From assembly GCA_903878275.1 (NCBI GenBank), contig CAIRHC010000002.1, positions 29,218-93,217 of the forward strand: a stretch of DNA of 64,000 nucleotides. Direction: 5' to 3'. The stretch is from Candidatus Vogelbacteria bacterium. Lineage in GTDB: Bacteria; Patescibacteriota; Minisyncoccia; Phycocordibacterales; XYD1-FULL-46-19. How positions within the stretch are numbered: the stretch's first letter is position 1; each line of letters opens with the position of its first letter. Under the pieces are notes generated by a model that was given only the letters and a program-made list of their open reading frames with translations, had not been told where the DNA came from and made no database searches. Shown here in pieces: positions 8,632 through 41,434 of the stretch. The translations under genes were made by a program, and so were the position numbers.

Positions 8632-8642
8632 CACCATACTAT

Positions 8643-8672
8643 TGACTTTTCTGCAAATCCGCCTAGTATAAT
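8643..8672 (+). promoter_or_regulatory. candidate promoter (TTGACT ... TATAAT) for the small membrane-protein gene
   Basis: attgacttttctgcaaatccgcctagtataat, followed by a strong RBS aaaggagag 5 nt before the ATG at 8708. Confidence 0.45.
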
Positions 8673-8707
8673 AGCTAGAATTGTAACCAAACGGAAAGGA
8701 GAGTTTT

Positions 8708-8956
8708 ATGCCAAAAAATAAAGAACCTTGGTGGGTTCACGTGTTTTCGATACTAGCTTGTCTGGGCGTTATGGGTGGTTTTTGTCTCCTAGCTATGGCA
8801 CCAGGAATTATCTGGTTGATTAGTATGGTGATGATATACCACCTTACTGGTAGTGCCTCACTCACAGCAGTTTATGCCATATTCGCAGGCATACTAGTAA
8901 TTGTGGTCTTTACATTCCTGTCCCGGAAGTTTCAGGAATGGGGCATAGACCACTAA
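8708..8956 (+). CDS. small membrane protein (82 aa, 2-3 TM)
   Basis: ORF with a strong RBS; hydrophobic. Confidence 0.5.
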   Translation: MPKNKEPWWVHVFSILACLGVMGGFCLLAMAPGIIWLISMVMIYHLTGSASLTAVYAIFAGILVIVVFTFLSRKFQEWGIDH

Positions 8957-8964
8957 TTAGTTTT

Positions 8965-9005
8965 GACCCGTCGGACGCCTCGCGTCCGACGGGTCCTTTT
9001 GTTTT
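8965..9005 (+). terminator. rho-independent terminator
   Basis: Perfect 14-bp stem gacccgtcggacgc/gcgtccgacgggtc followed by a T-run. Confidence 0.7.
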
Positions 9006-9035
9006 AATCAAACTTTGTTAAGATTAGAGTTAATT

Positions 9036-21109: not shown

Positions 21110-21691
21110 CTAACGAGCAATAGCTTGAACATCTTGCCATATCTTCATTACATCTCTGACATAATCAGTCATACCAGCACGAGCGGCCATGTTAAGAAGA
21201 GAACAATATCGTCGGGTATAGCTACCACAGTACCAAATCCGACTGATAGCTTCTCGTTTATCCATTACTTTAGCTTTACGGCTTAATTGATATAGATATT
21301 GGCCGTTGGTAGACTGTCGATTAATTGTGGTCAAAGCATAGATAAAATGTTGCTGGCATTTAAACTCTCTTTCTGTTGGTGACAAATAGAGCTTGTCGCA
21401 TCGACGCAAGCACTCAGGGCATTCAAAATAGTACCTCGTTCCTCCAAAAGGAGTGCTTAGTGTCAGTAAAGTTATTTTTTGTGAGTCACGATTAGGTGCA
21501 CCAAGTGTCACCACTGGTTCACCGCCTTCCATTTCTAGCCAATAATTAACAATTAGCTCGTTTTTACCGTTTAAAAGAGTGGCTTGGTCGGTAATAACGA
21601 CCCCACTAGCGTTCCTACAGCGAGATATTGAGCGTTTTAAAGCAGAAGTTGATAGTTGATAACACTCTTCAATTAAAGATGATCTAGTCAC
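21110..21691 (-). CDS. hypothetical protein with a Zn-ribbon-like CPEC...C motif
   Basis: 193-aa ORF, the last gene of the minus-strand island. Confidence 0.35.
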   Translation of the reverse strand: MTRSSLIEECYQLSTSALKRSISRCRNASGVVITDQATLLNGKNELIVNYWLEMEGGEPVVTLGAPNRDSQKITLLTLSTPFGGTRYYFECPECLRRCDKLYLSPTEREFKCQQHFIYALTTINRQSTNGQYLYQLSRKAKVMDKREAISRIWYCGSYTRRYCSLLNMAARAGMTDYVRDVMKIWQDVQAIAR

Positions 21692-21727
21692 CTTTAAATT
21701 TTAGCATAAGTCCTTGGAAAAATTCCC

Positions 21728-21886
21728 TTATATCTCCTCGGCAACCTCTAAAGCATCATCTTCGTCCAAACCTTCATCGATAAGCTCCTGTACCTTCTCG
21801 GCTTGGTCCTCATCAAGATCGTGAGCCAGCATTAGCTCGGCAATCTCTTCTTCTGGTCCTTCGTCTTTGTTTATTTCGTCATTCAT
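21728..21886 (-). CDS. small, highly acidic protein (52 aa; MNDEINKDEGPEEEIAELMLAHDLDEDQAEKVQELIDEGLDEDDALEVAEEI)
   Basis: ORF under 60 aa, missing from the track. Its ATG is 5 nt downstream of the thermonuclease stop. Confidence 0.3.
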   Translation of the reverse strand: MNDEINKDEGPEEEIAELMLAHDLDEDQAEKVQELIDEGLDEDDALEVAEEI

Positions 21887-21890
21887 AACT

Positions 21891-22691
21891 TTATTTACAC
21901 TCCTTATGCAATGTCTTATCCGGATAAGCCTTTAGCAACTCCGCCTCAGAGCTAAAGGTCTTAAGATATTTTGGCGACAAGCCTTTCCACACGGAATCAG
22001 TATCGCAATAATAATATCTCGCTGTTGGGTGAGCGCTAACATAAAAGGTGTGGCCGGTGGTCCCGATTACTGCAGGGCTAGAGGAAGAGACTTTTTGACT
22101 CGCATTTGTTACTTGTTGGCAAGCATTATCAGCCCACAAGCCTACCTTACTCGCCTCAGCTACTTTCTGGGCATTTTTATATTCCGCTTGATACTTGTAA
22201 GGGAGGTCATAGGTATATTCGTGAGCATAGCCTTCTTCAATCATCAACTTATTAAAACTTCGCCCATCAGCCAAATAAACATATCTTAATGTCCGGCCGT
22301 ACTTATCAAGCTCGCCTTGTGATTGATCGCTTTCTAAGCCGACTGATTGGCCTGACAAGAGCTCCTTCGCTTTCGCTGACGCTTCTCGGCCAAAACATTG
22401 AACTGGTTTTCGAGGATCAACCACTTCGGGCGTGTCCATACCAATCAGACGAAGTCTTGTTACTTTGCCGTTAATATCCACATCAATCGTGTCGCCATCA
22501 ACGACTTTGGTTACTCTAAATAACGAGCTTGAAGCGAAATTGCCACTAAGTTGGACATTTGCCACTAATTTTTGACCAAAGTCGCTAGATTGAGGAGATG
22601 GTGATAATTTAGAACTACTTACCGCTAAAACAACAGCGGCAAAAATAAAGATTAAGACTGTGAACCATTTTAAATACTGTTTTTTAAGCAT
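21891..22691 (-). CDS. secreted thermonuclease (staphylococcal-nuclease-like) with a C-terminal extension
   Basis: An N-terminal TM/signal segment, then VVDGDTIDVDINGKVTRLRLIGMDTPE...GRTLRYVYL...EGYAHEY. Confidence 0.75.
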   Translation of the reverse strand: MLKKQYLKWFTVLIFIFAAVVLAVSSSKLSPSPQSSDFGQKLVANVQLSGNFASSSLFRVTKVVDGDTIDVDINGKVTRLRLIGMDTPEVVDPRKPVQCFGREASAKAKELLSGQSVGLESDQSQGELDKYGRTLRYVYLADGRSFNKLMIEEGYAHEYTYDLPYKYQAEYKNAQKVAEASKVGLWADNACQQVTNASQKVSSSSPAVIGTTGHTFYVSAHPTARYYYCDTDSVWKGLSPKYLKTFSSEAELLKAYPDKTLHKECK

Positions 22692-23307
22692 GTTGATTTT
22701 TGTCGTAATAATACTTATTTATACCATGAGCAATCTCTAAAACCTCATTGGCTAAGGCTCTTAAGTTATCTATTTCTTTAGAAAAATCAGACGGACTATA
22801 CCTTTCATCCTTAGTAGATTTCGATCTTAATTTCTTTAAATCTTCTATTACCTTTGAACCATCGCTATCTAAACCCCCCTGAAATTCTAAAAGCTTTTTA
22901 TAACTTTCGATTTTTGTATCAATTTCAATCTCAGAGAACCCCATGTTAAAATAGGAACCCTTGTCACTAATATCCACATGGGCAATTATTTTATTTCTAT
23001 TGATTGTAATTTTATCAATAATGTTTTTATATTTCTTCTCAAAATTACTAATTCTGTCCTTAAAAATTTGAGGTGAGTCTTTTTTTAATTGTTTCAATCC
23101 TGATTTATCGCTCTTTGTCACTGAAATCAACTTTGCCATATCCAAAATAATGGAGTGGATATAGACAAAATCAATATTGTAAAAATCTTTCTTAATATCA
23201 CTTCCTTCTATCTTATTTTGGTAATCATCTAACTTTTTTAAACTGGTGCGACACAAATCATCAATAACCAGCAACAGGTTATAAAAATTTTTGGGGTGTT
23301 TCGTCAT
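22684..23307 (-). CDS. hypothetical protein with an Rx5H motif, possibly a HEPN/Abi-like RNase domain
   Basis: 207 aa, very AT-rich; RNKIIAH matches the HEPN R-x4-6-H pattern. Confidence 0.3.
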   Translation of the reverse strand: MTKHPKNFYNLLLVIDDLCRTSLKKLDDYQNKIEGSDIKKDFYNIDFVYIHSIILDMAKLISVTKSDKSGLKQLKKDSPQIFKDRISNFEKKYKNIIDKITINRNKIIAHVDISDKGSYFNMGFSEIEIDTKIESYKKLLEFQGGLDSDGSKVIEDLKKLRSKSTKDERYSPSDFSKEIDNLRALANEVLEIAHGINKYYYDKNQHA

Positions 23308-23338
23308 CTTTTGTTTATTTCATCGTCCATAGATTTAT

Positions 23339-23533
23339 CTAAATTCTGTTATTCCATCCTTGCCAGATTAAAACGATAGTGAGAATCACTAAAATTACAT
23401 TAAGGACGATAACTACTCGACTTGAAAAGTCGGTTGAATTCTTGAGCCGTCGCATCATTTCGACAGAGGCTCTGCTCGAAGTATTAAGGGTTTGATCGAC
23501 CAACTCATTATCTGTCTTGTTTTTATATTCCAT
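23339..23533 (-). CDS. small protein with a C-terminal TM helix (64 aa)
   Basis: ORF between the Cas4-like gene and the HEPN-like gene. Confidence 0.3.
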   Translation of the reverse strand: MEYKNKTDNELVDQTLNTSSRASVEMMRRLKNSTDFSSRVVIVLNVILVILTIVLIWQGWNNRI

Positions 23534-23541
23534 GGGTATTT

Positions 23542-24291
23542 TTATTTAATTAACTTCGCCCTTTCCTTAGCATAACCACAAAACTCACAATCGATGGTCT
23601 CCTTGGGCATCTTGGCGCGATTAAGGCACTTCTTAATCTTAACCAACTCCGCTTCAATCCAGTCGTCCTTGCCGGTATACGGAAGGACTACGATATCAAA
23701 CTCTACCTTGCCATCAAACGCTTTTCTATCCGTTCGACCATTACAATAGACGAAGTAGCCAATATCGGACACCTTAAAACCATTCTGACGCAGTAGCCAT
23801 TGGTAAATCTCCATTTGGCGCTTATAGCCGTCTTGCCACTCGGCATCAAGATTAACTTCGCTTTCCTTAGCCGTCGCCTTATAATCCACCACGATTAACT
23901 CTTTCTTTTTATTTATCCAGATATCGTCAACCGCCCCAGTGATCAACAGATTGGTCGGTTCATGTAGATAGCGAACACCTTTGAAGTTCTCTCTCCACTC
24001 GTCCATCATTTCATGCTGAAAAGGCACCGCATCAATGCCGTACTGCTTCATTAGCGGATGAGTCGTTTTGTCGGCGCGATGAATATCAAATTCTTTCTTT
24101 AAGAGTGTATCCACTGCCTTGTTAATATTAAAAGGTGGACAGTTTGGTTGTTTAATCCCAAGACGGTTATTTAAGTAGAAACAACAAGGGCAATTAACAA
24201 ACGACTCAATACCACTGCGGCTAATCTTAAATGGCTTGTCGTCTTTGGCTTTAAATAACCCCCGAGATTTTATTTTAAATTCTTTTTTCAT
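23542..24291 (-). CDS. Cas4/RecB-like PD-(D/E)xK nuclease with a four-Cys candidate Fe-S ligand set
   Basis: D...VVDYK core motif; cysteines in CPCC (N-terminal) and CEFC (C-terminal), as in Cas4/AddB nuclease domains. Confidence 0.55.
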   Translation of the reverse strand: MKKEFKIKSRGLFKAKDDKPFKISRSGIESFVNCPCCFYLNNRLGIKQPNCPPFNINKAVDTLLKKEFDIHRADKTTHPLMKQYGIDAVPFQHEMMDEWRENFKGVRYLHEPTNLLITGAVDDIWINKKKELIVVDYKATAKESEVNLDAEWQDGYKRQMEIYQWLLRQNGFKVSDIGYFVYCNGRTDRKAFDGKVEFDIVVLPYTGKDDWIEAELVKIKKCLNRAKMPKETIDCEFCGYAKERAKLIK

Positions 24292-24307
24292 ATTTATTCC
24301 TAGTTCT

Positions 24308-25978
24308 TCAACGTACTTCGACCCTGTCTTTATTAATCCACTTTAAAAATGTTGGTTTTTTATTTTTATTAGATGAGATGAGAAATATTTTCTTCCTAGC
24401 TCTAGTCAAAGCAACAATAAAATTACAGATATCTTGGTCGGAAATATTTTTCTTATCTTTGCCTTTGATAAAATACTGATCATCAAAGTGAGTAATAAAG
24501 ACAATATCAGCGGCCAGACCCTTGGAACTTTGGATAGTAGTGGCTTTTATTGGGATTTTCCTAATTCCCGGATTTCCTCCTTTTAAGGGATTAGACTCGA
24601 TCTCATTTTTTAGGAAGTTTTTTATAATTTCTTTATTTTCAAACCCCATTTTATTTAACAATTGTTCGAGTTCAACGGTATCGACAATTTTATCATTTTT
24701 AATACTACGACAGATCTTTAAGTCTCCATTGATTTCTTTTTTGATATCCTTAGAGACAATTTCGCTAATTGGTTTCGCGTTATCTTTAGCCGTCTCTTTA
24801 ATTAGCCTCTCAAAATCTTCCTTGCTTAAATAATGCTTTACAACAATACGCCAACCAAGATTGCTGCCAATGTGATCCAGAAGGAGTTTAAATCCATCAA
24901 TAATTGTTGGGTCTTCACCACTTTCTTTTTCTGGGTGCTCAATATTACTAAAACCTTTTTTGCGTAAGGCTTCGACGACAGTTTTTGACTGTTTTTTTGT
25001 TGGAGATATTATTAAGACCGAAAATAAACCCTTAACTTCTTCAGCTATCTCACCAATTTTTGTTTGGATATACCATGGGATTTGGCCAGCATACGATTGG
25101 TTATAAATAATGTTAGGGTTTAGTTCGCTCTCCTTGTCTTTCTTCTCATCCGGAAAATATTGATATGGTTTATCAATCCGATTTTTTAATAACCCGTTAT
25201 TCTTGGCGGACAATATCAAATCATTCGTAGCATCGACAATAACCTCGGTACACCGAGAACAATAGGGAAGGCTAAATGGTGCATATTCCGGGCACAAATC
25301 ACCATGCTTGAGTCGTATATAATCAGCGCTGGCACTCTTAAAACCATATAGAGCTTGGTCATCGTCCCCAGCTAACAAGACGGGACTTTTTTCTGAAAGT
25401 AGCTCGATGAGAGAAACTTCTAGTCTATTAAAATCCTGAAATTCATCGACGACAATTTGTTCCCACTTTGGTATTTTTTCTTTTTTAGATTCAAAATATT
25501 TAACCACGGCAAAGATAACATCTGGATACCCATAGTATTTGCCATAAAAGTTCTTTCGCTTCTTGTAAAATTCTAAATCCGTGTTATCGTCGTCACGGTT
25601 ATGAAAAATTTGGTCAAAATCAATGTCTTTTTCTAAAACAATCTTGGCATCTTCTTTTATTACCCGTGGCAGTTTAGGAAAAAGTTTTATCTCATTTTTT
25701 ACCACCTTACTTAACTCACTTCTGGCAAAACTATGGAGAGTTCTAACTTCTGATACACCACAAAGCTCTAGAGATAGTTCCTCTACCAGAGCATTCACAA
25801 AGGTAAGGGTTAGTGTGTCTTTTTTCCCTTTAAGTATCTCTTTAAAAAGATGGGTCTTCCCTGTCCCCGGCCCAGCAACGACAATTTTATGTCTTGAGAT
25901 AGAATTTAAAATTGCGTCAGTATGTTTCTTCCGTTCGGCTTTTGACTTAACATATTTTTCAACATTGTCAGGAATAAT
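24308..25978 (-). CDS. UvrD/Rep-family SF1 helicase with all motifs. There is no ATG/GTG/TTG before its Walker A, and it lies in frame with the upstream ORF across a single TAG.
   Basis: Motif I (IVVAGPGTGKT, about 25853-25885), motif II (IVVDEFQD), motif III (LLAGDDDQALYGF) and motifs V/VI (TIQSSKGLAADIVFI, VALTRARKKIFL). The first codons after the TAG are ATT ATT CCT GAC... Confidence 0.65.
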   Translation of the reverse strand: MIPDNVEKYVKSKAERKKHTDAILNSISRHKIVVAGPGTGKTHLFKEILKGKKDTLTLTFVNALVEELSLELCGVSEVRTLHSFARSELSKVVKNEIKLFPKLPRVIKEDAKIVLEKDIDFDQIFHNRDDDNTDLEFYKKRKNFYGKYYGYPDVIFAVVKYFESKKEKIPKWEQIVVDEFQDFNRLEVSLIELLSEKSPVLLAGDDDQALYGFKSASADYIRLKHGDLCPEYAPFSLPYCSRCTEVIVDATNDLILSAKNNGLLKNRIDKPYQYFPDEKKDKESELNPNIIYNQSYAGQIPWYIQTKIGEIAEEVKGLFSVLIISPTKKQSKTVVEALRKKGFSNIEHPEKESGEDPTIIDGFKLLLDHIGSNLGWRIVVKHYLSKEDFERLIKETAKDNAKPISEIVSKDIKKEINGDLKICRSIKNDKIVDTVELEQLLNKMGFENKEIIKNFLKNEIESNPLKGGNPGIRKIPIKATTIQSSKGLAADIVFITHFDDQYFIKGKDKKNISDQDICNFIVALTRARKKIFLISSNKNKKPTFLKWINKDRVEVR

Positions 25979-27214
25979 CTATAACTTTGATCTAAGATTT
26001 TTAAGATTAGCCAATAATTCGTCATAGAGAATAAAATTAATATTTTTTAGCGACGATCCCAATTTTCTAAAATCTGCCGATTCCTTTTTGTTTGCAAATT
26101 GAGCACTTGTTCCCGCGATGATATAACCGCGAGGACGAACAACACGGATATCTAGAGTCTTTTTTCTTTTTACTGCACGAATATAATCATCAGAATTACG
26201 AACAATTTCATCGTTATAATTCTCAATTTGAGCAATGGCTTTTGAAATATCAGCTTTCCAATAATAATTATCGTGGTCCTCGTCGAGACTAAGTAAGGGG
26301 GTGTCATGCTTTTTTATTTCAAAAACATCCACGAAACCGTACACATCAACCAAGACAAAATCTGGGTAACTTACACTGACACTAACATTTTGTTTTTCTA
26401 TTGAAGTGATATAGTTTGCCATAAAACGAAAAACTTTTTCGCTTAAGAATTTTTGCCAATCATTTTCAGAGAGGGTCTTTTTCGCCAAATTAAGATCAAA
26501 TTCTTTTATAACTTCGTCAAGAAAAATTTTATCAGTGACAGTCTTGGTCTTTTTTATAAGCGTGGCACGTCCAATTTTAACTCCTCGTTTCTTGCCCTTG
26601 GTCGAACCCTCAAATATTTTAGGGAAGAAATCGCTAAGAGATTCGAGGTCTTCTTCATTCAGCTTTTGGGATACCTTTTTGCGCCGCAGAAGCGCCGCCA
26701 TTTCACCTCCTTTATATTCGTCAAAATCATCGGCAGAAATTCTAATTTCCTTTGGAAATTTTGTACTCAAAAAGGAAGCAACGGAACCACGCAATTCATT
26801 ATTGTTATCTTCGTTTATTCTCCCAAGTCTTATAAGGAGATTCTTAATGTCAATAAAAGGAAGGGTAACTGATATTTTATGGATACCGTTCTTCACTTTT
26901 TTTCTTTGTTTGTCTGATATTATAAACTCAAGAATCCTCCCGTTTGCCAAGTGATTTTTAAGTCCAAGGAGAAGAAAAACGCCTTTCTTGCTACCACTAA
27001 ATCCATAACCGTTCTTGTTAAGGTAAAGTCCTGATGGAACACCCTGAAAACCATCGAGCGTAATACTAGAAACCTCTTTTGCTTTTGTCGGCCGGAAGTT
27101 ATAAATCGTTTTATTTGTCTTGCGATATATCTCGCAGACACAAAAATCAGGGTCGTCTGTCGCAAAGCGTCGTTCAGGAATTTCTTGTTTTTTTATCTTT
27201 TTCATTTTTCCCAA
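25979..27214 (-). CDS. PD-(D/E)xK nuclease-domain protein, Shedu/DUF4263-like, with an N-terminal domain of unknown function
   Basis: C-terminal motifs VLVDVYGFVDVFEIKK and ...AIAQIENY (D...ExK...QxxxY). 411 aa, ending at a TAG in frame with the helicase. Confidence 0.45.
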   Translation of the reverse strand: MGKMKKIKKQEIPERRFATDDPDFCVCEIYRKTNKTIYNFRPTKAKEVSSITLDGFQGVPSGLYLNKNGYGFSGSKKGVFLLLGLKNHLANGRILEFIISDKQRKKVKNGIHKISVTLPFIDIKNLLIRLGRINEDNNNELRGSVASFLSTKFPKEIRISADDFDEYKGGEMAALLRRKKVSQKLNEEDLESLSDFFPKIFEGSTKGKKRGVKIGRATLIKKTKTVTDKIFLDEVIKEFDLNLAKKTLSENDWQKFLSEKVFRFMANYITSIEKQNVSVSVSYPDFVLVDVYGFVDVFEIKKHDTPLLSLDEDHDNYYWKADISKAIAQIENYNDEIVRNSDDYIRAVKRKKTLDIRVVRPRGYIIAGTSAQFANKKESADFRKLGSSLKNINFILYDELLANLKNLRSKL

Positions 27215-29637
27215 AGTTTAGCTAATACTTCTTTAGCCTTTTGCTCATAAATCTCAATAAGTTTTTTAGCAGAATTGACTAAGCCGAGCTCAGCTTCGAT
27301 TTTTTCCACAATTTGTTTTTGAATTTCGAGAGGAGGTGCAAATATTTCAGTTTCTTCAATTAATTTATTATATAGCCGTTCGATGGTCCCACCTTTAGTA
27401 GTAACCCAATTAATATCTTGAAAAACTAAATAAAGATATTTATTGTCTACTATTTTTCCATCGTTTTCTATCCAAACTATATTTGAATCTTGAAAATAGG
27501 CTGGCTCACCATCAAAAATAACAGTTCTGCCAATAGTCCCAGAAGTTGAAATTAAGACATCGCCTTTTTTGGGGTAAGAAAATTTAGCCTGATAATCATC
27601 AAACAATTCTTGACTAATAAATGCATCTGGATTTTTCCCAAATGTACCAATTTTATAAAAAGGGACTTTACCATCGGCACTAGTTTGGTCCTTAAAAACT
27701 CTTTTACACATGCTAACTTTCCCAACCTCTCCCAACTTCACCTTCTCCCACTCAGGATCAATCTCGATTTTCGTTTTCCAGTTTTGGGTAATTTGTTTAG
27801 CGCCGGAAATAATACCCGTATATCCTTCCAGCTCTACTACAATCTGCTTTTGGATTTCGAGAGGTGGGAGAGGGATTTTAATTGTTTTTAGATCCTTTGG
27901 ATAAACATGTGGTTGCCCACCTCCTTGCTGAAATTTATAGATGTCTTCCTGTTTTGTTTTAAGAATATAAAATAGATATTTAGTGCTAACTACATTTTTA
28001 TCGATTGATTGGATTGTCGAACAATCGGAGGCAAAAATTGGGGTATTAAAATAATTTACAAATCCAGAATAAGCACCAGAAGCGCTAACCGTGATGACTT
28101 CACCATTCCGATTTGATTCGTCGTGATAATAGGCTGGCTCTTGACCTCCCGCTATCACTGGAATATTCCCATCTTTAGTGTCTTTTTTTGTTATGGCGGA
28201 ACCTTTTATAATTTCAGCAATCTCGCCCAACTCAACCATTGGCCACTTGGCGTTAGAATAATCGGTGACAACTTGATAACGATCACCGGAAAGATTATAG
28301 TCACCGCTCTCGGCAATTTTGGATTTTTCAACCCACAAACCAAGATCCCATTCTTTTTCTCCTTTTAAATTAACTTTTTTATCCCCGGCCATTAAAGTGT
28401 CCTGCCAAATTCGAAGATAATGTAAAGCTAAAGGCAAATCACCCTGATGACCAAGAGATCTCCTCTGTGCGCCCAAATCAAAGCCGTCATCCTTTATTTT
28501 TATAAACAAAATATCCTGAGCTCTCTTTGCTAGCTCATTATCAAAAAACAAGATACTTGTTTTTACCCCAGCATAAGGATTAAACACGCCTGAGGGTAAA
28601 GACACGACAGCAAACAAGCCATCTTCAACGAGACTTTTTCGCAGTTGCTTATAGGCAGTCCCTGATTGAAAGATGATACCCTCAGGCACAATAATACCGG
28701 CTCGGCCCTTTGGTTGGAGGTGGTTCATTATGTAATCGACAAACAAAACCTCACTTCGGCTCGATTGAATACTAAACTTACTGTGCGGTTTAATGCCTCC
28801 CTTCGGTGACATAAAAGGTGGATTGGCCAGAATTACACTAAATTTGTCGTTCCAACGCTCATCGCTTGAAAGAGAATCATACTGAAAGATTTTTGGATTC
28901 TTAAATTGGTGAAGATACATATTAACTTGAGCAATACGCACCATGCCGGGATCGATGTCGTAGCCTTCAAAGTTATTCGCTAAAGCGCGCCTTTGATCCG
29001 GAGTCAGAGATTTCTCTTTTTTGTCTGGGTCGTCTTTGCCATCATGTTGCTCAAGAATATGTTTGTAAGAACTAACCAAGAAGCCACCCGTGCCACAAGC
29101 GGGATCAAGAACTTTATCATCTTTTGTTGGATTAACGACATCAACTATAAAATCAATGATGTGGCGAGGAGTACGGAATTGACCAGCGTCGCCTTGAGAG
29201 GACATTATTGATAGTAAATATTCGTAAGCGTTACCAAGCTCTTCGGGGTGAGAGTAATCAAAATAATCAATCTCTTTAAGGAATAGCCCCAAAGTTTCAG
29301 GTGAACGATACGGCAAGAAGGCAGACTTAAAGATCCCTCTAAAAAGTTCCGGCAGTTGTTTGGCTTCTGAGAATTTAAGTAGGGCCTCTGAGTAAAGATT
29401 CATGCGCTCTTGATTTCCCATGCGAGAATCCATTAAGCGAGTCCAAGCGTAACGCTCGAGACTACCGACAAAAAAGGAAGGTTCGCCACCCGCTTTAATC
29501 GCCGCCTGATCCATGTCATCCATAAACTTATAGACCAAAGCATTGGTGATTTGATCAATCTGCGAAGTCGGATTTGGTACCACTCCAACAAGCACTTGAC
29601 GAGCCGAATCAATATGTCGTTTTGTGTCAGCGTTCAT
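27202..29637 (-). CDS. type I R-M methyltransferase fused to a specificity subunit (HsdM-HsdS fusion, two TRDs)
   Basis: The N-terminal half has N6-adenine MTase motifs (DPACGTGGFLV, LANPPF). The C-terminal half has two TRD-like halves, each followed by the repeat PLPPLEIQKQIV / APPLEIQKQIV. Confidence 0.8.
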   Translation of the reverse strand: MNADTKRHIDSARQVLVGVVPNPTSQIDQITNALVYKFMDDMDQAAIKAGGEPSFFVGSLERYAWTRLMDSRMGNQERMNLYSEALLKFSEAKQLPELFRGIFKSAFLPYRSPETLGLFLKEIDYFDYSHPEELGNAYEYLLSIMSSQGDAGQFRTPRHIIDFIVDVVNPTKDDKVLDPACGTGGFLVSSYKHILEQHDGKDDPDKKEKSLTPDQRRALANNFEGYDIDPGMVRIAQVNMYLHQFKNPKIFQYDSLSSDERWNDKFSVILANPPFMSPKGGIKPHSKFSIQSSRSEVLFVDYIMNHLQPKGRAGIIVPEGIIFQSGTAYKQLRKSLVEDGLFAVVSLPSGVFNPYAGVKTSILFFDNELAKRAQDILFIKIKDDGFDLGAQRRSLGHQGDLPLALHYLRIWQDTLMAGDKKVNLKGEKEWDLGLWVEKSKIAESGDYNLSGDRYQVVTDYSNAKWPMVELGEIAEIIKGSAITKKDTKDGNIPVIAGGQEPAYYHDESNRNGEVITVSASGAYSGFVNYFNTPIFASDCSTIQSIDKNVVSTKYLFYILKTKQEDIYKFQQGGGQPHVYPKDLKTIKIPLPPLEIQKQIVVELEGYTGIISGAKQITQNWKTKIEIDPEWEKVKLGEVGKVSMCKRVFKDQTSADGKVPFYKIGTFGKNPDAFISQELFDDYQAKFSYPKKGDVLISTSGTIGRTVIFDGEPAYFQDSNIVWIENDGKIVDNKYLYLVFQDINWVTTKGGTIERLYNKLIEETEIFAPPLEIQKQIVEKIEAELGLVNSAKKLIEIYEQKAKEVLAKLWEK

Positions 29638-29641
29638 TTAT

Positions 29642-32179
29642 TTATAAGTTTGTTAATTGGTAGGCATAATCACGGACATATTGAGGGACGATCACTCGGT
29701 AGCCATTTAATTTCTGATAATCTTCAAAGTCGAAAGAGGGACAGTGATAAAAATCAGCTGGTTGATTGCGCTTCACAATGTCACGAACTTCTTCGTCAGA
29801 GATGTAAGCCTTAAAGAAGTTTTTAGCTGGTCGGTAATGGTCTTGATCAACATTATAAATATCGACAAATTTCTGCCATTCGGATTCCAAGAGGTCATCT
29901 TTCATCTCAAAGGTTTCTTTATCACCAAAAGCTACCTGCAAGAATTCTTTAACAGTCACTCGGCGGTCAACGCCAAAAATCTTACGGATCTTATCAAGAT
30001 TCAAGAAATATTTCGGCTTATCAAAAATCTGCTTTTTAGCAAAGTCTTCCGCCGCTTCCGTGTCGCCGTTCTCCCACATATTCTTTAGAGTTTCATTGCC
30101 AAGGACATCTTCTTCGACAGCTCGCTTAAAACCTTCGCGATCAATTCGCATAATCACACCCTCGGGAGTCTCAGAAATTGTGGCTAATTCATCTGAAGTC
30201 GCAAGATCGATCGGCCCCTTAAGTGGTTCCGGAGTTGGACCACCGACAGGACCATTTCCTCCCGGACCAGTTAATGGCGGGATATGGACGATGGGAAGTT
30301 TAATTTTTTCATCATACTCAAATTCATTTTCAAAATATTCACAGGTGGCGAAGAAATCGAAAAACTTAAATTTTTCTTTCGGTAGGGTAACTTTATCATT
30401 TTGATAATCGTTATATTCAAACAGCCATTTTCTCGTGCCTCGTCCTTTAATCTGAACAAAATCGGTGGGAGAAAAAACCGGACGCATTAAGGCGATGTTG
30501 AGTAGGTCTTGGCAATCATAACCAGTGGTCATCATGCCGACAGTGACAGCAATCCGCGCTTTGCTTGTGTCATAGCCTTCTGGGTGTTTTGTTTGTCCGC
30601 CAAGGCGATTGTTGGCAAAATTAATGGTCATTTGTTGAGCACTGTCTACTTGTGAAGAAACTTGCATCGCAAAATTTGATTCACTATATTGCTCTGGCCA
30701 TTTTTCAAAAGCAATTTTGTTTAATATGTTGGTCAGTCGAGCAGCGTGTTTTTGAGAGACAGCAAAGACAATTGATTTACCAAAAAGATCTACTCCTAAT
30801 TTTTTAGCCACTGGGTCATATAGCCCGTTATCAATAAAGGCTTTGCACATGGCGATATTGGTCTCATCATTAAAAATTTTCCGCTCATAGTGGCGTTCAT
30901 TAAATACCTCGTCGATGGTCTCGCCGCTTTCCGTTAGGGTATGAACGGCATAACCTTTCTCTGATAAAAGTTCAGTGGTAATTTCGGTCCGAGCATCGAC
31001 AAGTGTCGGCTTAATCAAGTAGCCTTCTTTTGCTCCAGTGTCTAAGTCATAAGAAAAAGTAGGATTACCGGATTCGCAACCAAATGTTTTATAGGTATCA
31101 ATCAAGAGTCGTCGCTCGTACTCTCTTTGACTATCAGCACCTTCAGTATCAAAGCCTCTCAAATAATTTTTAGGTGTAGCCGTTAAACCTAATTTATAGC
31201 CAACAAAGTATTCAAAAACCGCTCGACTATTACCACCGATTGAACGATGTGCTTCATCTGAAATAACTAATTCAAAATCGGTTGGTGAAAATTCTTTTTT
31301 ATAACGATCGCCAGCGAGAAAGGTTTGGATAGTAGAAACCACCACGCTAGCGTTTTGCCAAGAATCCCGGCTGTCTTTATAAATAACCGTGGCAAAATCG
31401 TGACCAAGATAAGCGGTAAACGCTTTGTAGGCTTGATCTTCCAGCTCTAAACGGTCTACCAAGAAAAGAACACGGCGAGCATTACCGGATTTTAAGAATA
31501 ATTTAATTATCGCTGCGGAAATGAGAGTCTTACCAGTGCCAGTGGCCATCTCAAAAAGAAATCGTTGCTTACCACTTTTCGCTGATTCTTGAAGAGCTTT
31601 GATCGATTGAAGTTGATAAGGACGAAGTTGCTTAATACGATTATTTTTTAAGAAGTCAGATCTCGTGGCTTCATTCTGAAAAGAAGGATCATTTATTAAT
31701 CCTGGCATTTGCGTGACGGCAACATAATTCTCATCAACTGGAGTGTTAGCTAATTCCTCAGGATTTGGAGTGTACTTTTCATATTGAGTAATTGAGTCTT
31801 GGGTTGGGAAACGAGAAATGGTGTCAGGATTACCATGCTTAGTGTCCCAGAGATAATGAATATTGCCATTTGAGAGAATGATAAAACGAGCGCCAGAGTT
31901 ACGAGCATAATTTCTCGCTTGTTCTTTGGCAGAAAGTGGATCAACTGCTTCGCGTTTCGCTTCTACCACCACCAAGGCTCGGCCATCTTTATCAAGTAAA
32001 AGAAAATCTATGAAGCCATGAGTTTCATTTTCAAAGTCATCTCCAAGGTCAGAATATTTAACACCTGGCTCAAGGCGGATATTAGCTTTGCCGTTTTTGT
32101 CATCCTCAAAACGCCAGCCAGAAGCTTCGAGAAGTTTATTGATCTTAATTCGAGCAGATGCTTCTTTAGAATTTGCCAT
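29642..32179 (-). CDS. hsdR: type I restriction enzyme R subunit (HsdR-like, 845 aa)
   Basis: N-terminal Mrr/HSDR_N-like nuclease (FIDFLLLDKDGRALVVVEAKRE), then an SF2 helicase (FLFEMATGTGKT, VISDEAHRS). Confidence 0.8.
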   Translation of the reverse strand: MANSKEASARIKINKLLEASGWRFEDDKNGKANIRLEPGVKYSDLGDDFENETHGFIDFLLLDKDGRALVVVEAKREAVDPLSAKEQARNYARNSGARFIILSNGNIHYLWDTKHGNPDTISRFPTQDSITQYEKYTPNPEELANTPVDENYVAVTQMPGLINDPSFQNEATRSDFLKNNRIKQLRPYQLQSIKALQESAKSGKQRFLFEMATGTGKTLISAAIIKLFLKSGNARRVLFLVDRLELEDQAYKAFTAYLGHDFATVIYKDSRDSWQNASVVVSTIQTFLAGDRYKKEFSPTDFELVISDEAHRSIGGNSRAVFEYFVGYKLGLTATPKNYLRGFDTEGADSQREYERRLLIDTYKTFGCESGNPTFSYDLDTGAKEGYLIKPTLVDARTEITTELLSEKGYAVHTLTESGETIDEVFNERHYERKIFNDETNIAMCKAFIDNGLYDPVAKKLGVDLFGKSIVFAVSQKHAARLTNILNKIAFEKWPEQYSESNFAMQVSSQVDSAQQMTINFANNRLGGQTKHPEGYDTSKARIAVTVGMMTTGYDCQDLLNIALMRPVFSPTDFVQIKGRGTRKWLFEYNDYQNDKVTLPKEKFKFFDFFATCEYFENEFEYDEKIKLPIVHIPPLTGPGGNGPVGGPTPEPLKGPIDLATSDELATISETPEGVIMRIDREGFKRAVEEDVLGNETLKNMWENGDTEAAEDFAKKQIFDKPKYFLNLDKIRKIFGVDRRVTVKEFLQVAFGDKETFEMKDDLLESEWQKFVDIYNVDQDHYRPAKNFFKAYISDEEVRDIVKRNQPADFYHCPSFDFEDYQKLNGYRVIVPQYVRDYAYQLTNL

Positions 32180-32184
32180 AATCT

Positions 32185-33381
32185 TTATTTTTTAAATTCT
32201 TGAAGCTTAAAATCAATTTTATATAAATAAACCTCCGTGTCTTTTATTTTTTTCAAGGCGTAATACAGTCTTTCGTCATACTGCGAGGCGATAATGATTC
32301 CTTTTACCGTTTTGCCATTAGTTTTATTTTCTTCAATCCAACCCATATACCGAGCAAGTTGCCCAACAGTATCATCGCTCGTCTTTCCCTTTTTCAATTC
32401 GATAACAACATAATTTTTGGTCTCTTTTTCTTGCGCCAAGATGTCAATTCGTCCGATACCGGTCTGATACTGCTGGCTTTTTAATTCACCCTCCTCTTCG
32501 ATAAGGTCATATCTTTGGCCCAACTCAGTTCTATCCCAGTTTTCTATTAAAAAATCTTCAAGTTGACTCTCCATATAAAAAACAGACGGATCAACCAAAA
32601 CTTCAGAGGTTGTGTCCTCTTTATTTACGGAGACTTCTTTAAAACCACCCCATGGGGCATAGTCATCTTCATGCTCAATCTTCCAAAGAGGCTTAGCTTC
32701 CGAAGAATACAGAAAATCGGAAATAGTTCGAGCTGAGTAATTAAGGCCAAAGCTATTAAAGCCTCTCATTATTTCGATATTAGAAAAAATTATTTTCTTT
32801 CCAATAGAATCTTTATCGAAATCTGGAGCCCCCTCAAATCCAAAATACTCAAAAACTTTTCTTCGATCCTTAAGTGAGATAACACTTAAGTTGCTGACGG
32901 GGTTAAAAGCGGCCAGCATCGCGTTTATGGCATTACCACTTGGACCAGTAAGATTATTACGATGCCCCTCGTTAAGTTTATATACCTCATTTATAAGTTC
33001 CGCCCTCTTATCAACATCTTTTTCTGTAAAAATACTGTTCAGCAGGTTGGATAAATTCTTATTTATTTTTATCTCATTAAACATTCTGCGCCACGCCCCC
33101 TGTGGAATCATCGCTTTGGCGACAGCTTCACTTTCTTTGGTATTGCCCTTACCGTTTCGATCCAAAATTTTAATAATTTGATCCGTCTCCGTATCGTTTA
33201 GTTCTTCTCTGTCACCACTCATTATTTTAGTCACCCAAAAATCATGAAATTGTTTACTTTGTTTTTCCCAAACAGCATTCTTGGCCTCAGTGTCATAATT
33301 GGCAAGAAAGCTATTAAATAATTGATTAAGTTGTTGTTTTTCCATTGGATTACCTATTATTAGAGCCTTATTTATCAACAC
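32185..33381 (-). CDS. protein with a C-terminal PD-(D/E)xK (NucS/RecB-like) nuclease-fold domain; first gene of the island
   Basis: ...GRIDILAQEKETKNYVVIELKKGKTSDDTVGQLARYMGWI. Confidence 0.45.
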   Translation of the reverse strand: MLINKALIIGNPMEKQQLNQLFNSFLANYDTEAKNAVWEKQSKQFHDFWVTKIMSGDREELNDTETDQIIKILDRNGKGNTKESEAVAKAMIPQGAWRRMFNEIKINKNLSNLLNSIFTEKDVDKRAELINEVYKLNEGHRNNLTGPSGNAINAMLAAFNPVSNLSVISLKDRRKVFEYFGFEGAPDFDKDSIGKKIIFSNIEIMRGFNSFGLNYSARTISDFLYSSEAKPLWKIEHEDDYAPWGGFKEVSVNKEDTTSEVLVDPSVFYMESQLEDFLIENWDRTELGQRYDLIEEEGELKSQQYQTGIGRIDILAQEKETKNYVVIELKKGKTSDDTVGQLARYMGWIEENKTNGKTVKGIIIASQYDERLYYALKKIKDTEVYLYKIDFKLQEFKK

Positions 33382-33725: not shown

Positions 33726-34034
33726 ATGAGTGATACTCTAACAATCAAAACAAATTACTCTGGCTCAGAACATACTCGAGATGATGTTAAGCAACAAATC
33801 TTGGAGCGTTTTGGACCAGAACTCGCCAAAGAATACGATCCGTACACCAACTGTATGACTTTGGCACAATGGGCTTCAAGAGGCTACCGTGTTAAACCTG
33901 GCGAGAAATCTTTGAAATCCAAGGTTATCGTGGAGAAAAAAGATGAGAATGAAAAAACTGTAGCGTCCTTCTTTCGTATTTGCCATCTTTTTTATTACCC
34001 ACAAGTAAAACGCCTACCGAATTATGGAAACTAA
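33726..34034 (+). CDS. hypothetical protein (102 aa)
   Basis: ORF that overlaps the next gene by 11 nt. Confidence 0.35.
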   Translation: MSDTLTIKTNYSGSEHTRDDVKQQILERFGPELAKEYDPYTNCMTLAQWASRGYRVKPGEKSLKSKVIVEKKDENEKTVASFFRICHLFYYPQVKRLPNYGN

Positions 34035-35408: not shown

Positions 35409-36839
35409 CTATAACCCAAAAAATGATCTAAACCTCGACCAGAAACTAGTCTTCTTGTCACCAGACGCAAATGTAGTACTGCTATTTTTTACCTCAGGCT
35501 GAATTAATGCTTGTTGTTTGGAATTACTAATGGCTTTAAGTTGATCTCTAAAATCACCAGCAAAAAGACTTCTGCTCATCCAGCCTGTTATTATCTCTTT
35601 ATTATCATTTCTTGCTTTAACTTGATACCAATCTCCGCTACCATCAATACTAATAATGGAAACTTCAGCTGTTTCGGCATAGTACCTAATCACCTCACAA
35701 GACATCCCCGGACATTCCCTAAAAGCTCCTGGGATTTTTAAAATCGCTACGATTCCATCAATACCCGTTGCCGTGGAAGAAGCACCACTTTCAGATTTAT
35801 TATTAATATCAGGAGCCTTAATCTTTTTCTCTAACTTAGGAACCACTGGTGTTATTTTAGGTGTTAGGACACAAACGGTGCTATTAGAATTAAATTGATA
35901 ACCAACTTTACAGTCGCAAATTAACCCCCCTTCATTATTTTTGTCTCCACCCCATATACTATTTTTACCATATTCATCCTGACAAATCTGGTCATTCGTT
36001 TTTGTCGGAGCAACTGCTTCAGCCTTTTGTCTGGCCAAGAGTAGGGCTTTTTGATAAGCGATTTCTGCTTCGATATTACTTGCCCTTATTTGTCCCCGCA
36101 AAGCCTCTGACCCAGAGCTGATATTTTGGGGAACAACTGGCGGAACAATACAGCCAGATCCAGAGTCTCTAACATAACCATCTTTGCACCCACAAGTTGT
36201 ACCACCCACCCATTTAAAGTTTTGCCCAAATTTTTCACTGCAAATCTGATCCTGTGACTTTGAGGGAGTTATTGCCGGAGGTGGAGTTTCCCTCATAATT
36301 GAGCATTGTAAAAGAGCCGTAACACACCTTTCTTTACTTCCTAAAAGGCTCACAAAAACATCAAAGTCCAGAGAAGTTGGGTCAGACGGAATCCTCGCAC
36401 CCTGAAGACAATCAGAATTACTTAACCGACATTGAGTATAACTAGAATTTGAACTACCCGCAGCGTCATATTGTTTTTCAATACCGTCTAATTTATAGAA
36501 ATAATCTAATTTAATTTTAAAAATCTCTTGAGCATGAGTAGCATCAGCGGCTAGTTGATCTCTTGCTCGTTGATCCTGAATTCTTTGATCCCTTGTACAA
36601 TTATAGATTGCTTCATTTTCAAGGCCAGAACCAGAAAGCCCCCGGGCTTCGTATTCCGCCCTTATCGATGACAAGCAATCACTGGCGCGAATTTTATCTG
36701 GCGAAATAAATAAGCAAAAGAAAAAAATAAAGAGACTCAAATAAATTCTTTTCTTCATAATGTTGTTTATTAACTGATAATTTTTAATATTAGAACGCAA
36801 AAAGCTCTTAGCCAGATTGATGGTTTTGAAGCCATCCAT
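35409..36839 (-). CDS. secreted Cys-rich repeat protein with a C-terminal SH3b-like domain
   Basis: Signal peptide; two internal repeats (QICSEKFGQNFKWVGGTTCGCKDGYV / QICQDEYGKNSIWGG...LICDCKVGYQF); C-terminal GSGDWYQVKAR...ITGWMSRSL. Confidence 0.5.
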   Translation of the reverse strand: MDGFKTINLAKSFLRSNIKNYQLINNIMKKRIYLSLFIFFFCLFISPDKIRASDCLSSIRAEYEARGLSGSGLENEAIYNCTRDQRIQDQRARDQLAADATHAQEIFKIKLDYFYKLDGIEKQYDAAGSSNSSYTQCRLSNSDCLQGARIPSDPTSLDFDVFVSLLGSKERCVTALLQCSIMRETPPPAITPSKSQDQICSEKFGQNFKWVGGTTCGCKDGYVRDSGSGCIVPPVVPQNISSGSEALRGQIRASNIEAEIAYQKALLLARQKAEAVAPTKTNDQICQDEYGKNSIWGGDKNNEGGLICDCKVGYQFNSNSTVCVLTPKITPVVPKLEKKIKAPDINNKSESGASSTATGIDGIVAILKIPGAFRECPGMSCEVIRYYAETAEVSIISIDGSGDWYQVKARNDNKEIITGWMSRSLFAGDFRDQLKAISNSKQQALIQPEVKNSSTTFASGDKKTSFWSRFRSFFGL

Positions 36840-36999
36840 ATCCCTTTCGAGATACGACCCGTGAAGGCAAAACTCTGACTAAGAGTTCTTTATGCTTCAC
36901 GGGATTTTCACCATGCCCAGCACCGCTGGGTTTAGGTTACTTTTAACTATTTAATTGTCCTTTTATGGTACCATGCCAAATTGAAATCGTCCAACAAAA

Positions 37000-39690: not shown

Positions 39691-41430
39691 ATGGCAACTC
39701 TAAATACAAAAGATCAAGAAATATTAAAAGATATCACCGCTGGTAAATACCGCGATTATTATTTTGTGTACGACCGTCGATCAACGGACGAGCCTGATAA
39801 CCAGAAAAATTCTCTTAGTTATCAAAAAATTGAGAATTTAAAGTTTGCTCATGACAAAAAACTACTAATTGCACCTATCACTATCGTTGGCTTCTGCACA
39901 GACGGAATAATTTCGGAGAAACACTCAGGTTTTAAAGAAGATGGGAATTTTACTATTACTCCTGACGGCAAAGTTCAATACAGTATTTCTCGCATCAAAT
40001 TCCATCGAATGGTTTACTTCCTAAACAAAAAACTGCTTAAGGGAGTTATCTTTCTCTGCTACGATCGAGCCAGTCGTAACAGTGGCGACGACGCCATTAT
40101 TAATAAGTTAATCGCCAATGGTGTAGATTTACGCTTTGCTCAAACAAATTACGAAAAGAATAGCTCAGGTTTTCTTCATCGTTCGGTTGATAGCATGTTT
40201 TCTGGCCATTATTCACGAGTTGTTGGTGAAAAAGTTAAACTAGCTCAAGAAAAATTAAGAAACGAAGGCGTTTGTGTCTATAAAGCGCCAGTCGGCTACT
40301 TAAACACTGGAAAAGCTGAATATAAACCGATTGATTCTGTCCGTGGTCCAATTATTACAGAACTTTTCGAGCTATATTCCACTGGCGAGTGGAGCCTTGC
40401 CGACTTAGCTCGTTGGGCTAATAAAGCAGGATTAACAACATCACCAAGTCGCCATCGCCGGACACCAGAAGAAATGGCCGAGGACGATGACGAAGAAACT
40501 GGTGATAAAAGGGATAGCGAGATACCCGTCTCGCGTCCGATTATTCCTCAAAGTATTCACGGGATACTATCAAATCGTTTTTATCTTGGCTTAATACGAG
40601 GTAGAGATGGACAATACCTAAAAAGCACTAGCCACAAGGCACTAGTTACCGAAGAATTGTTTAATAAAGTTCAAATGGTCTTGAGAGGCAAAAATATCAG
40701 CGCTCATTATCTTAATAAATTACCACTGGCAAATCGTGGCTTTGTTCGTTGTGGCGGTTGTCGTCGAGTTTATACTCCTTACGAACAAAAAGGGATAACT
40801 TTCTTTCGATCTAACTGCCAGCGAGGTTGTGAGAATAAAAAGAAAAACTTTAACCTATCCTTTCTCGAAGAAAAAGTTAGTGGATTAATGGCGAAGTTGT
40901 CTTTTACTGATGATGAATTGTCTGAAATCGATGCCGAATTTAATGACAAGATCATCAGCGCTGACGAGAAAAAGAAAGAAAAGTTAAGACAGAATGACAG
41001 GATTAAAAGAAAACTCCAAGAAGATCTTGAGTATATCCGCTCAAACAAAATTTCTTTATTAAGATCAAAAGTTTTCTCTCCAGAATCTTTGGCCACCGAA
41101 GAAGGCCGTCTTCATACTGAATTTTTGTCCTGTTTGGTTATCGAGAAGTATGCCGAGCTCTCCATGCATAAAATGTTCCAAGATGCCTTGAAACTTTCCG
41201 AACTGCTAAAAAACGGCTCAAAGTATTACGATTTAGCTCTTTCTAACGAAAAAGAAGAAATTGCCAAAATAATCTTTTACGAACTGAATATCACCGATAA
41301 TACGTTGGATTATAAGTGTCGAGAAGGTTTTAAATTTCTCGAAGACAGATTCCGAAATGTTGGCGGGCCCACGGGGATTCGAACCTCGGTTATCCGTTTT
41401 GGAGACGGACGTTCTACCACTGAACTATAG
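39691..41430 (+). CDS. large serine recombinase (resolvase, recombinase and zinc-ribbon domains); its 3' end is encoded antisense to tRNA-Trp
   Basis: YFVYDRRSTDEPDNQ (catalytic Ser), a recombinase domain, and CGGCRRVYTPYEQKG...CQRGC. The last 23 codons overlap the tRNA. Confidence 0.8.
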   Translation: MATLNTKDQEILKDITAGKYRDYYFVYDRRSTDEPDNQKNSLSYQKIENLKFAHDKKLLIAPITIVGFCTDGIISEKHSGFKEDGNFTITPDGKVQYSISRIKFHRMVYFLNKKLLKGVIFLCYDRASRNSGDDAIINKLIANGVDLRFAQTNYEKNSSGFLHRSVDSMFSGHYSRVVGEKVKLAQEKLRNEGVCVYKAPVGYLNTGKAEYKPIDSVRGPIITELFELYSTGEWSLADLARWANKAGLTTSPSRHRRTPEEMAEDDDEETGDKRDSEIPVSRPIIPQSIHGILSNRFYLGLIRGRDGQYLKSTSHKALVTEELFNKVQMVLRGKNISAHYLNKLPLANRGFVRCGGCRRVYTPYEQKGITFFRSNCQRGCENKKKNFNLSFLEEKVSGLMAKLSFTDDELSEIDAEFNDKIISADEKKKEKLRQNDRIKRKLQEDLEYIRSNKISLLRSKVFSPESLATEEGRLHTEFLSCLVIEKYAELSMHKMFQDALKLSELLKNGSKYYDLALSNEKEEIAKIIFYELNITDNTLDYKCREGFKFLEDRFRNVGGPTGIRTSVIRFGDGRSTTEL

Positions 41431-41434
41431 GCCC
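41361..41434 (-). tRNA. tRNA-Trp (anticodon CCA)
   Basis: rc reads GGGCCTATAGTTCAGTGGTAGAACGTCCGTCTCCAAAACGGATAACCGAGGTTCGAATCCCCGTGGGCCCGCCA. The anticodon loop is CTCCAAA and CCA is encoded. Confidence 0.75.

Follow-up and report, generated by a model that had tools for sequence, protein, structure and literature searches.

In a 64,000-nucleotide (nt) stretch of contig CAIRHC010000002.1 from a Candidatus Vogelbacteria bacterium (the window), eleven open reading frames (ORFs), among them genes for nucleases, a helicase and a type I restriction-modification (R-M) system, follow one another on the minus strand. The region is a genuine defence island, as had been held in a preliminary description made from the sequence. 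We consider it probable that the island is a mosaic of independent modules aligned on one strand, including a helicase and a Cas4-like nuclease appended to R-M genes, rather than one multi-gene system. The modules are a PDC-S02-like gene, the type I R-M system, a stand-alone SduA (Shedu), a UvrD/PcrA-like helicase and a Cas4/AddB-like nuclease (Table 1).

Conservation of the SduA, helicase and Cas4-like genes

The preliminary description had singled out SduA, the UvrD-like helicase and the Cas4-like nuclease as an undescribed system, and had named a lack of co-conservation in other gene neighbourhoods as evidence to the contrary. Neighbourhoods were compared from the side of each gene, using crude ORF picks for the related loci and considering the best 80 loci of each scan. 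The trio was not co-conserved from any of the three sides. An SduA homologue was absent from all 87 loci compared, 85 of them with the helicase (BLASTP E <= 1e-5). SduA relatives 73-82% identical to the window protein were found in four unrelated contexts, with neither the helicase nor the Cas4-like gene alongside. Finally, none of 80 Cas4-like metagenome loci, 41 of which had at least 2.5 kb of upstream sequence, contained the helicase. The proposal thus failed on the comparison it had itself set. The three genes are contiguous, with gaps of 0 and 16 nt, the helicase shares its frame with the SduA stop, and the catalytic motifs are intact in all three proteins, as one new three-gene defence system would predict. 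Against these neighbourhood results, such a system is nevertheless highly improbable, the more so as Shedu is known as a single-gene system and as an unrelated 322-amino-acid (aa) gene occupies the place of SduA in a related Patescibacteria locus, L013.

The stable frame among the related loci consists of R-M genes, then variable genes that often include the UvrD-like helicase, and then the Cas4-like gene. A Cas4-like gene was present in eight helicase loci, representing six distinct places (L001 and L008 are the same place, as are L002 and L003). In L008, L002, L013, L080 and L087 the helicase is followed by the Cas4-like gene at a distance of 3-5 nt; the window genes are 16 nt apart. The pair always follows an R-M or other defence unit, which differs from case to case: a type III R-M system in L001/L008, a type IIG enzyme with a methyltransferase in L002/L003, an SNF2-PLD protein with an MmeI-like methyltransferase in L080, AAA_21 with RloB in L087, and a type I R-M system in L013. 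Both genes also lie within one type I locus, L081, in the order GmrSD, Cas4-like, HsdM, Abi_alpha, HsdS, helicase, HsdR. The window frame of HsdR, HsdMS, a variable gene, helicase and Cas4-like gene is repeated in L013, with identities to the window of 52.5% for HsdR (full length), 47.8% for HsdMS (825 aa, 6525-9002), 58% for the helicase and 56% for the Cas4-like nuclease.

In four of the five nearest Cas4-like relatives with long contigs, the nuclease gene closes a type III R-M operon that has no helicase. The order Mod-Res-Cas4-like, with 4-nt overlaps, was found in L169, L170 and L171; a 101-aa gene is interposed between Res and the Cas4-like gene in L168, and a GmrSD/HEC-05 gene in L172. 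These type III-linked loci also hold integrase, resolvase, primase or toxin-antitoxin genes. A housekeeping context surrounds the fifth nearest relative, L173.

Neither the genes in the variable slot nor those downstream of the Cas4-like gene are homologous between loci. The slot holds SduA in the window and a GmrSD/HEC-05 gene or a methyltransferase elsewhere. Its unannotated occupants are candidate unknown defence genes: L013 9015-9983 (322 aa), L002 7442-7996 (184 aa), L168 9482-9787 (101 aa) and L169 6758-7312 (91+91 aa). On a broader scale, we tentatively propose, as possible rather than probable, that R-M operons of Patescibacteria and other uncultured lineages share an R-M unit, a variable slot and a terminal Cas4-like gene, with the helicase as a frequent slot occupant that would form a post-restriction degradation accessory with the nuclease.

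As a side observation, L087 (8155-12319) contains, in this order, an AAA_21 ATPase, a RloB-like protein, a distant member of the helicase family and a Cas4-like gene, an arrangement that resembles a split unit of the Gabija or AbiL type to which a nuclease has been added.

The helicase family and the start of the helicase gene

The AlphaFold2 (AF2) model of the helicase (mean pLDDT 84.6) matched UvrD, PcrA and Rep in Foldseek searches with a query TM-score (TMq) of ~0.70, and AddA, AdnB and RecB at ~0.5. At least 1310 database matches were obtained for the family. The best 120 matches are 539-622 aa long, except for the window's own 496-aa public call, and contain only UvrD-type Pfam domains; the nuclease domain PF12705 was found in 0 of these 120. 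In contigs limited to one genome per species, confirmed loci numbered 433 and came from many bacterial phyla and from a few archaea. Searches of plasmid and phage collections gave no matches. Neighbouring genes are highly variable between loci, and the commonest neighbour domains in Pfam and PADLOC censuses belong to the R-M families Eco57I, N6_Mtase, ResIII, HSDR_N, MmeI and GmrSD. An R-M-like gene occurs within three genes on either side of the helicase in 20 of 79 loci, nearly always on the same strand, a raw count made without a background model. The place between hsdM/S and hsdR is taken by the helicase in L072, L077 and L081. The family, which has no name, is scattered across the phylogeny, and its members often lie within R-M operons or are attached to them.

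In the Verrucomicrobiota loci L004-L007 and L012 (144-9671), the helicase gene is preceded by those for a Peptidase_S8 protein, a 1444-aa DEAD/YjiV_N/Helicase_C protein and a protein of the MZB (DUF1998) type. This context is of the YprA-like helicase type, which has also been tied to Cas4-like genes (PMC5704561).

The helicase frame of the window runs unbroken up to the SduA stop, with which it is in frame (...TTA TAG ATT ATT CCT...). The first ATG, GTG or TTG in this frame is GTG 25798, at which the public 496-aa call (P0001) begins. The Walker A motif GPGTGKT (IVVAGPGTGKTHLF) lies upstream of this GTG in the same frame and is omitted by the public call. The gap from SduA is 0 nt if measured to ATT 25978 and 180 nt if measured to GTG 25798. 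Because the Met of the homologues aligns at the window's ATT and the helicase motifs are all invariant in the family alignment, we take the real gene to be 24308-25978. By this alignment, the helicase would either initiate at ATT or have lost its start codon very recently.

Two other explanations of the in-frame junction were rejected. Reassignment of TAG does not apply, since TAA, TAG and TGA are all in use and TAG closes 17 of 46 ORFs; a native SduA-helicase fusion does not apply, since the helicase homologues are stand-alone, most of them ~555 aa long, and have no SduA domain.

Because no ATG, GTG or TTG precedes the Walker A motif, the helicase is possibly poorly expressed or dead in this genome. 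Inactivation through a lost start codon, or expression only as a rare SduA-helicase read-through product across the in-frame TAG, would be consistent with the lack of these three codons between the SduA TAG and GTG 25798, with the frame shared by the two genes, and with the lack of a Shine-Dalgarno-like sequence before the ATT. We nevertheless judge this quite unlikely. The 60 codons before the GTG are intact and visibly similar to those of the homologues, with all seven Walker A residues kept, so any inactivation would be very recent. The stand-alone homologues have their Met at the position of the ATT, TAG serves as an ordinary stop here, and AUU is a known, though weak, bacterial start codon.

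The SduA protein

The assignment of SduA is firm, with a match to Pfam PF14082 (SduA_C) at E 1.5e-25 (90.6 bits against a cut-off of 27) and to the PADLOC SduA profile at E 6e-24. It also aligns to the solved Shedu structures 8PS4 (E 2e-7) and 8TI8 across the catalytic stretch, where the PD-(D/E)xK residues (D...D..ExK) in DFVLVDVYGFVDVFEIKK align with DIALVDANGNLDIIEVKK of 8PS4. No named domain was matched by the N-terminal 240 aa. Translation most likely starts at ATG 27205, in an ATGA overlap with the hsdMS stop and in agreement with the public 408-aa call (P0241); the alternative start TTG 27214 gives a 411-aa version.

SduA homologues number 218 at E <= 1e-5 and come from several phyla. 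Among the 120 matches listed, most are full-length (~408 aa) and 50-83% identical, and some are named Shedu by NCBI. By the distribution of these relatives, SduA is a mobile stand-alone Shedu with no conserved partner. The window protein resembles described Shedu in its above-threshold SduA_C domain and in its behaviour as a mobile single gene; it differs in its N-terminal region, and it has no connection to the adjoining helicase.

The Cas4-like nuclease

The Cas4-like nuclease has invariant residues D122 D123, D136-Y-K138 and Q159...Y163, and invariant cysteines at C34, C37, C235 and C238. These four cysteines are spaced CxxC ... CxxC; the usual iron-sulfur spacing of Cas4/AddB-type proteins is C...CxxCx5C. 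Foldseek matches to its AF2 model (pLDDT 87) were the AdnA nuclease domain, Cas4 SSO0001, human EXO5, RecE, type I-C Cas4, ACE1 and AddB. Scores for the Cas4 families were below thresholds (PF01930, 21.4 bits vs 22.7; TIGR00372, 25.1 vs 65).

An identity as a CRISPR-associated Cas4 was rejected on these sub-threshold scores, together with the lack of Cas1/Cas2 family matches among the 38 window ORFs scanned and the lack of a CRISPR-type repeat array in the window. The only Cas-profile matches in the window are weak nuclease- or helicase-domain matches (Cas4, Cas4b, Cas1g, Cas3b, DinG) in three island proteins.

The Cas4-like family comprises at least 8000 matches, 65-83% identical and ~248 aa long. 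All named relatives are Patescibacteria or unclassified bacteria; those of the helicase and SduA include other phyla. An R-M-like gene was found upstream of the Cas4-like gene in 7 of the 41 metagenome loci with enough upstream sequence.

The housekeeping locus L173 contains, at 8001-9457, two PDDEXK_1 genes (249 and 236 aa) arranged tail to tail, which suggests that some of these genomes carry paralogous Cas4-like nucleases.

Comparison with known systems

The closest described association is that of UvrD-Cas4-like fusions, which form the largest pfam12705 branch and mostly adjoin type III Mod/Res genes; an ancillary defence role was inferred by the authors (Hudaiberdiev et al. 2017, PMC5704561). 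Like these fusions, which are found by type III Mod/Res or Dcm-Vsr genes, the window has an SF1 (superfamily 1) UvrD-like helicase and a Cas4-like RecB-family nuclease at the edge of an R-M system. It differs in that the two are separate ORFs split by a stop and 16 nt, that the R-M system is of type I, and that a Shedu gene lies between; moreover, helicases and nucleases of the window types are each far more often found without the other. Across the related loci, the R-M types beside the helicase or the Cas4-like gene are I, IIG and III, together with other defence units. By gene order and domain content, the helicase/Cas4-like unit may be described as a split-gene, type-I-linked variant of the association described in 2017, with no implication of ancestry shared with the fusion clade. 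An unfused UvrD and Cas4-like operon has also been described in Clostridiales, in a non-defence context (PMC5704561).

An alternative raised in the preliminary description, an AddAB/AdnAB-like end-resection module captured by an R-M system, comes closer to the evidence. The window does contain a UvrD-like motor and a RecB-type nuclease with a putative Cys staple, the model of which matches the AdnA and AddB nuclease domains. However, neither protein is a member of AddA/AddB or AdnA/AdnB, and the link to R-M is recurrent, not one-off. In contrast to AddAB, AdnAB and RecBCD, a nuclease domain is missing from the helicase and a helicase-like domain from the nuclease, and the genes are patchy and R-M-linked rather than core. 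NCBIfam scores for addA and recB were 27-30 bits, against a cut-off of ~700.

The window helicase also gave weak, partial PADLOC matches to GajB of Gabija (best E 1e-17). Gabija is distinguished by GajA (an ABC-type ATPase with TOPRIM, OLD family), which had no match among the ten island proteins scanned with Pfam and PADLOC (the 52-aa ORF was outside the PADLOC scan), and the structural match of the helicase to GajB was poor (TMq 0.32-0.34 vs 0.70 for UvrD).

Type I loci with accessory genes, such as PADLOC PDC candidates and Abi_alpha, offer a further comparison, with L081 carrying both Abi_alpha and the helicase between hsdM/S and hsdR. The window likewise has a PDC-S02-like gene before hsdR and SduA, the helicase and the Cas4-like gene after hsdMS; it differs in its fused 811-aa HsdMS, as in L013, and in matching PDC-S02 over the nuclease domain alone. 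Neither PADLOC (2023) nor NCBIfam has a name for the helicase or the Cas4-like nuclease, and full-text literature searching found no named defence system with the helicase-Cas4-like pair.

Proposed role of the helicase and nuclease

In the model that we propose, the R-M enzyme cuts unmethylated incoming DNA, which is the established behaviour of its family. The helicase would load on the cut ends and unwind 3'->5' as an SF1A motor, as its UvrD-like fold and intact motifs suggest, and the Cas4-like nuclease would degrade the displaced strand, given its catalytic residues of the RecB family and its putative four-Cys "staple". The pair would thereby provide a RecBCD/AddAB-like clean-up step for restricted DNA, attached to R-M, while SduA would act separately from the R-M system, the helicase and the nuclease. 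In this genome, production of the helicase would hinge on initiation at the non-canonical ATT.

Several observations weigh against coupling the two genes to R-M in this way. The window helicase is without an ATG, GTG or TTG ahead of its Walker A motif. Most Cas4-like homologues in metagenome loci sit among housekeeping genes, and the helicase-linked copies are scattered among solo copies in a rough, star-like neighbour-joining tree that was used qualitatively. The pair is rare in both families, being present in ~6 of 79 helicase loci, none of the 80 Cas4-like metagenome loci and none of the five nearest Cas4-like relatives. Because the pair is the minority state, its adjacency could merely reflect an independent preference of both genes for the 3' ends of R-M operons. 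Taken further, the two proteins would not cooperate at all but be separate R-M add-ons, with the Cas4-like nuclease working directly with the Res or HsdR motor. The helicase-free Mod-Res-Cas4-like operons with their 4-nt overlaps and the ~73 of 79 helicase loci with no Cas4-like gene speak for this, as does a constant order in which the R-M genes come first and the Cas4-like gene last, with SduA, GmrSD/HEC-05, a methyltransferase, unknowns or the helicase between. We find it doubtful all the same, since in five independent loci, with helicases 32-68% identical to that of the window, only 3-5 nt separate the helicase stop from the Cas4-like start. UvrD and Cas4-like domains are, moreover, fused in a large related group (PMC5704561), which argues for functional coupling.

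It is also unlikely that the two proteins, or the nuclease alone, serve housekeeping repair or end resection as an AddAB stand-in of a small-genome bacterium, with an incidental R-M neighbour. This role would fit the great size and strong conservation of the Cas4-like family, the placement of its named members in Patescibacteria, the match of the nuclease fold to the AdnA and AddB nuclease domains, and the housekeeping surroundings of most metagenome copies; solo-Cas4 is over-represented in candidate phyla radiation (CPR) bacteria and mostly vertically inherited, with no arms-race signature (PMC5704561). The helicase, however, is patchy over many phyla and has variable neighbours, which is not the pattern of a core gene, and R-M genes are its commonest neighbours. 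The type III R-M operons ended by four of the five nearest Cas4-like relatives, in loci that also hold integrase, resolvase, primase or toxin-antitoxin genes, likewise speak against a housekeeping role. A mosaic island with an R-M-appended helicase and nuclease remains our preferred reading.

The PDC-S02-like gene and the type I R-M system

The first gene of the array encodes a 398-aa protein of which residues 255-394 only match PDC-S02 (profile positions 166-306 of 308); profile searches gave no match for the N-terminal 250 aa. The hsdR start follows its stop after 5 nt. One PDC-S02 representative has been assayed in E. coli B, and did not figure among the four candidates for which protection against T4, T5 or T7 was reported (PMC12881386).

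The type I R-M system is complete, with an HsdR containing an N-terminal nuclease and a superfamily 2 (SF2) motor, an HsdM, and an HsdS with two target recognition domains (TRDs). HsdM and HsdS form a single polypeptide beside a separate HsdR, a subunit arrangement that is unusual among type I systems and recurs in a second Patescibacteria genome, L013. A 43-nt repeat internal to hsdMS coincides with the motif PPLEIQKQIV, which is present twice in the protein.

Table 1 Genes of the island in transcription order (window coordinates).
Gene	Product	Coordinates	Strand	Basis
g01	398-aa protein, C-terminal PD-(D/E)xK nuclease domain (NucS_C/YhcG_C-like)	32185..33381	-	PADLOC PDC-S02 E 2.9e-49
g02	HsdR, EcoAI-like, 845 aa: HSDR_N_2 nuclease + ResIII motor	29642..32179	-	profile searches
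g03	HsdM-HsdS fusion, 811 aa: N6_Mtase then two TRDs	27202..29637	-	profile searches
g04	SduA, 408 aa from ATG 27205	25979..27205	-	SduA_C
g05	UvrD/PcrA/Rep-like SF1 helicase, 556 codons	24308..25978	-	UvrD-type Pfam domains, AF2 model, Foldseek
g06	Cas4/AddB/EXO5-like PD-(D/E)xK nuclease, 249 aa	23542..24291	-	Pfam PDDEXK_1 6e-12
g07	64-aa protein, one C-terminal hydrophobic helix	23339..23533	-	translation; sub-threshold SLATT-like matches only
g08	207-aa protein, possible HEPN (AbiU2-like), motif RNKIIAH	22684..23307	-	weak Pfam match
g09	Staphylococcal-nuclease-type thermonuclease, 266 aa, N-terminal hydrophobic anchor	21891..22691	-	Pfam SNase 2.4e-24
g10	52-aa acidic protein	21728..21886	-	translation; no family match
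g11	193-aa protein with CxxC pattern	21110..21691	-	translation; no Pfam, PADLOC, NCBIfam match

Layout of the island and its downstream genes

All eleven minus-strand ORFs were recovered where the preliminary description had placed them, and nearly all of its fold and family assignments were upheld by profile searches (Pfam, PADLOC, NCBIfam) and alignment to PDB structures. Its figures for the island as a whole fared less well. At 12,272 bp, the span 21110-33381 is longer than the stated 11.7 kb or so. Nor is a very AT-rich right half borne out, its GC content being 39.3% (27215-33381) against 37.3% for the left half (21110-27214) and 40.2% outside the span; clearly low values are confined to the 207-aa gene (29.3%), the helicase gene (35.2%) and SduA (35.8%). 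The short overlaps it described are present, but gaps of 0 nt (helicase from ATT) and 36 nt also occur in addition to those of 4-31 nt, the full series in transcription order being 5, 4, -4 or -13, 0, 16, 8, 31, -8, 4 and 36 nt.

This spacing makes one shared transcript for the island plausible. Promoter and terminator scans did no better than on shuffled sequence. Same-strand genes run on past the eleven, down to ~13.3 kb, and the 3' limit of the array is arbitrary because of this extension.

The five genes downstream of the Cas4-like nuclease have no conserved link to the PDC-S02-like, R-M, SduA, helicase or Cas4-like modules. The 64-aa protein has no homologue in the related loci. The 207-aa protein matches HEPN_AbiU2 below the cut-off (E 1.2e-4, 22.1 bits vs 26.8), and its gene is not kept beside the Cas4-like gene in other loci. 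The thermonuclease, which also matches PADLOC C3a212 (4.5e-51) and an NCBIfam NucI-like family, is probably extracellular. In three loci, namely the window, L139 (6199-6984) and L013 (3236-3931), no more than a few kb separate an SNase-type gene from the Cas4-like or R-M genes, a proximity that may be due to chance. The description of the 193-aa protein as a Zn-ribbon rested on its CxxC pattern, which is present; no family in Pfam, PADLOC or NCBIfam was matched.

Surroundings of the island

A 579-aa protein with a serine-recombinase "Recombinase" domain is encoded at 39691-41430 (+), ~6 kb from the 5' end of the island, and abuts a tRNA-Trp at 41361-41434 (-). Serine recombinases also flank the related loci L002, L169, L174 and L177. 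Possibly an integrated element carries the island as cargo; a search for att-like direct repeats flanking it gave nothing convincing. Just beyond the island, a 102-aa ORF (33726-34034, +) resembled, very weakly and below threshold (E 0.0036), the N-terminal domain of ArdC, an anti-restriction factor.

Elsewhere in the window, a full-length Rfam LOOT RNA match (77 bits, gathering score 46.4) lies at 36819-36938 (-), just upstream of a 476-aa SH3-like gene. The segment 13959-19454 (-) encodes a C39-type peptidase, a 239-aa unknown protein and a radical-SAM protein, then a response regulator and a 7TM-GAF histidine kinase. It looks like a peptide-maturation cluster (of the ribosomally synthesized and post-translationally modified peptide, RiPP, or bacteriocin type) with its own two-component system.

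Implications

The window alone adds a split-gene example to the association first described in 2017, and does not contain the new three-gene system that had been proposed. Attention to the variable slot that separates the R-M genes from the nuclease could be of practical help in finding new defence genes. If the helicase and the Cas4-like nuclease do finish DNA cut by R-M enzymes, two large unannotated families, of at least 1310 helicase and at least 8000 nuclease matches, would gain a name and a role, and small-genome, mostly CRISPR-free bacteria would couple restriction to DNA destruction by means of a compact, portable two-gene module.

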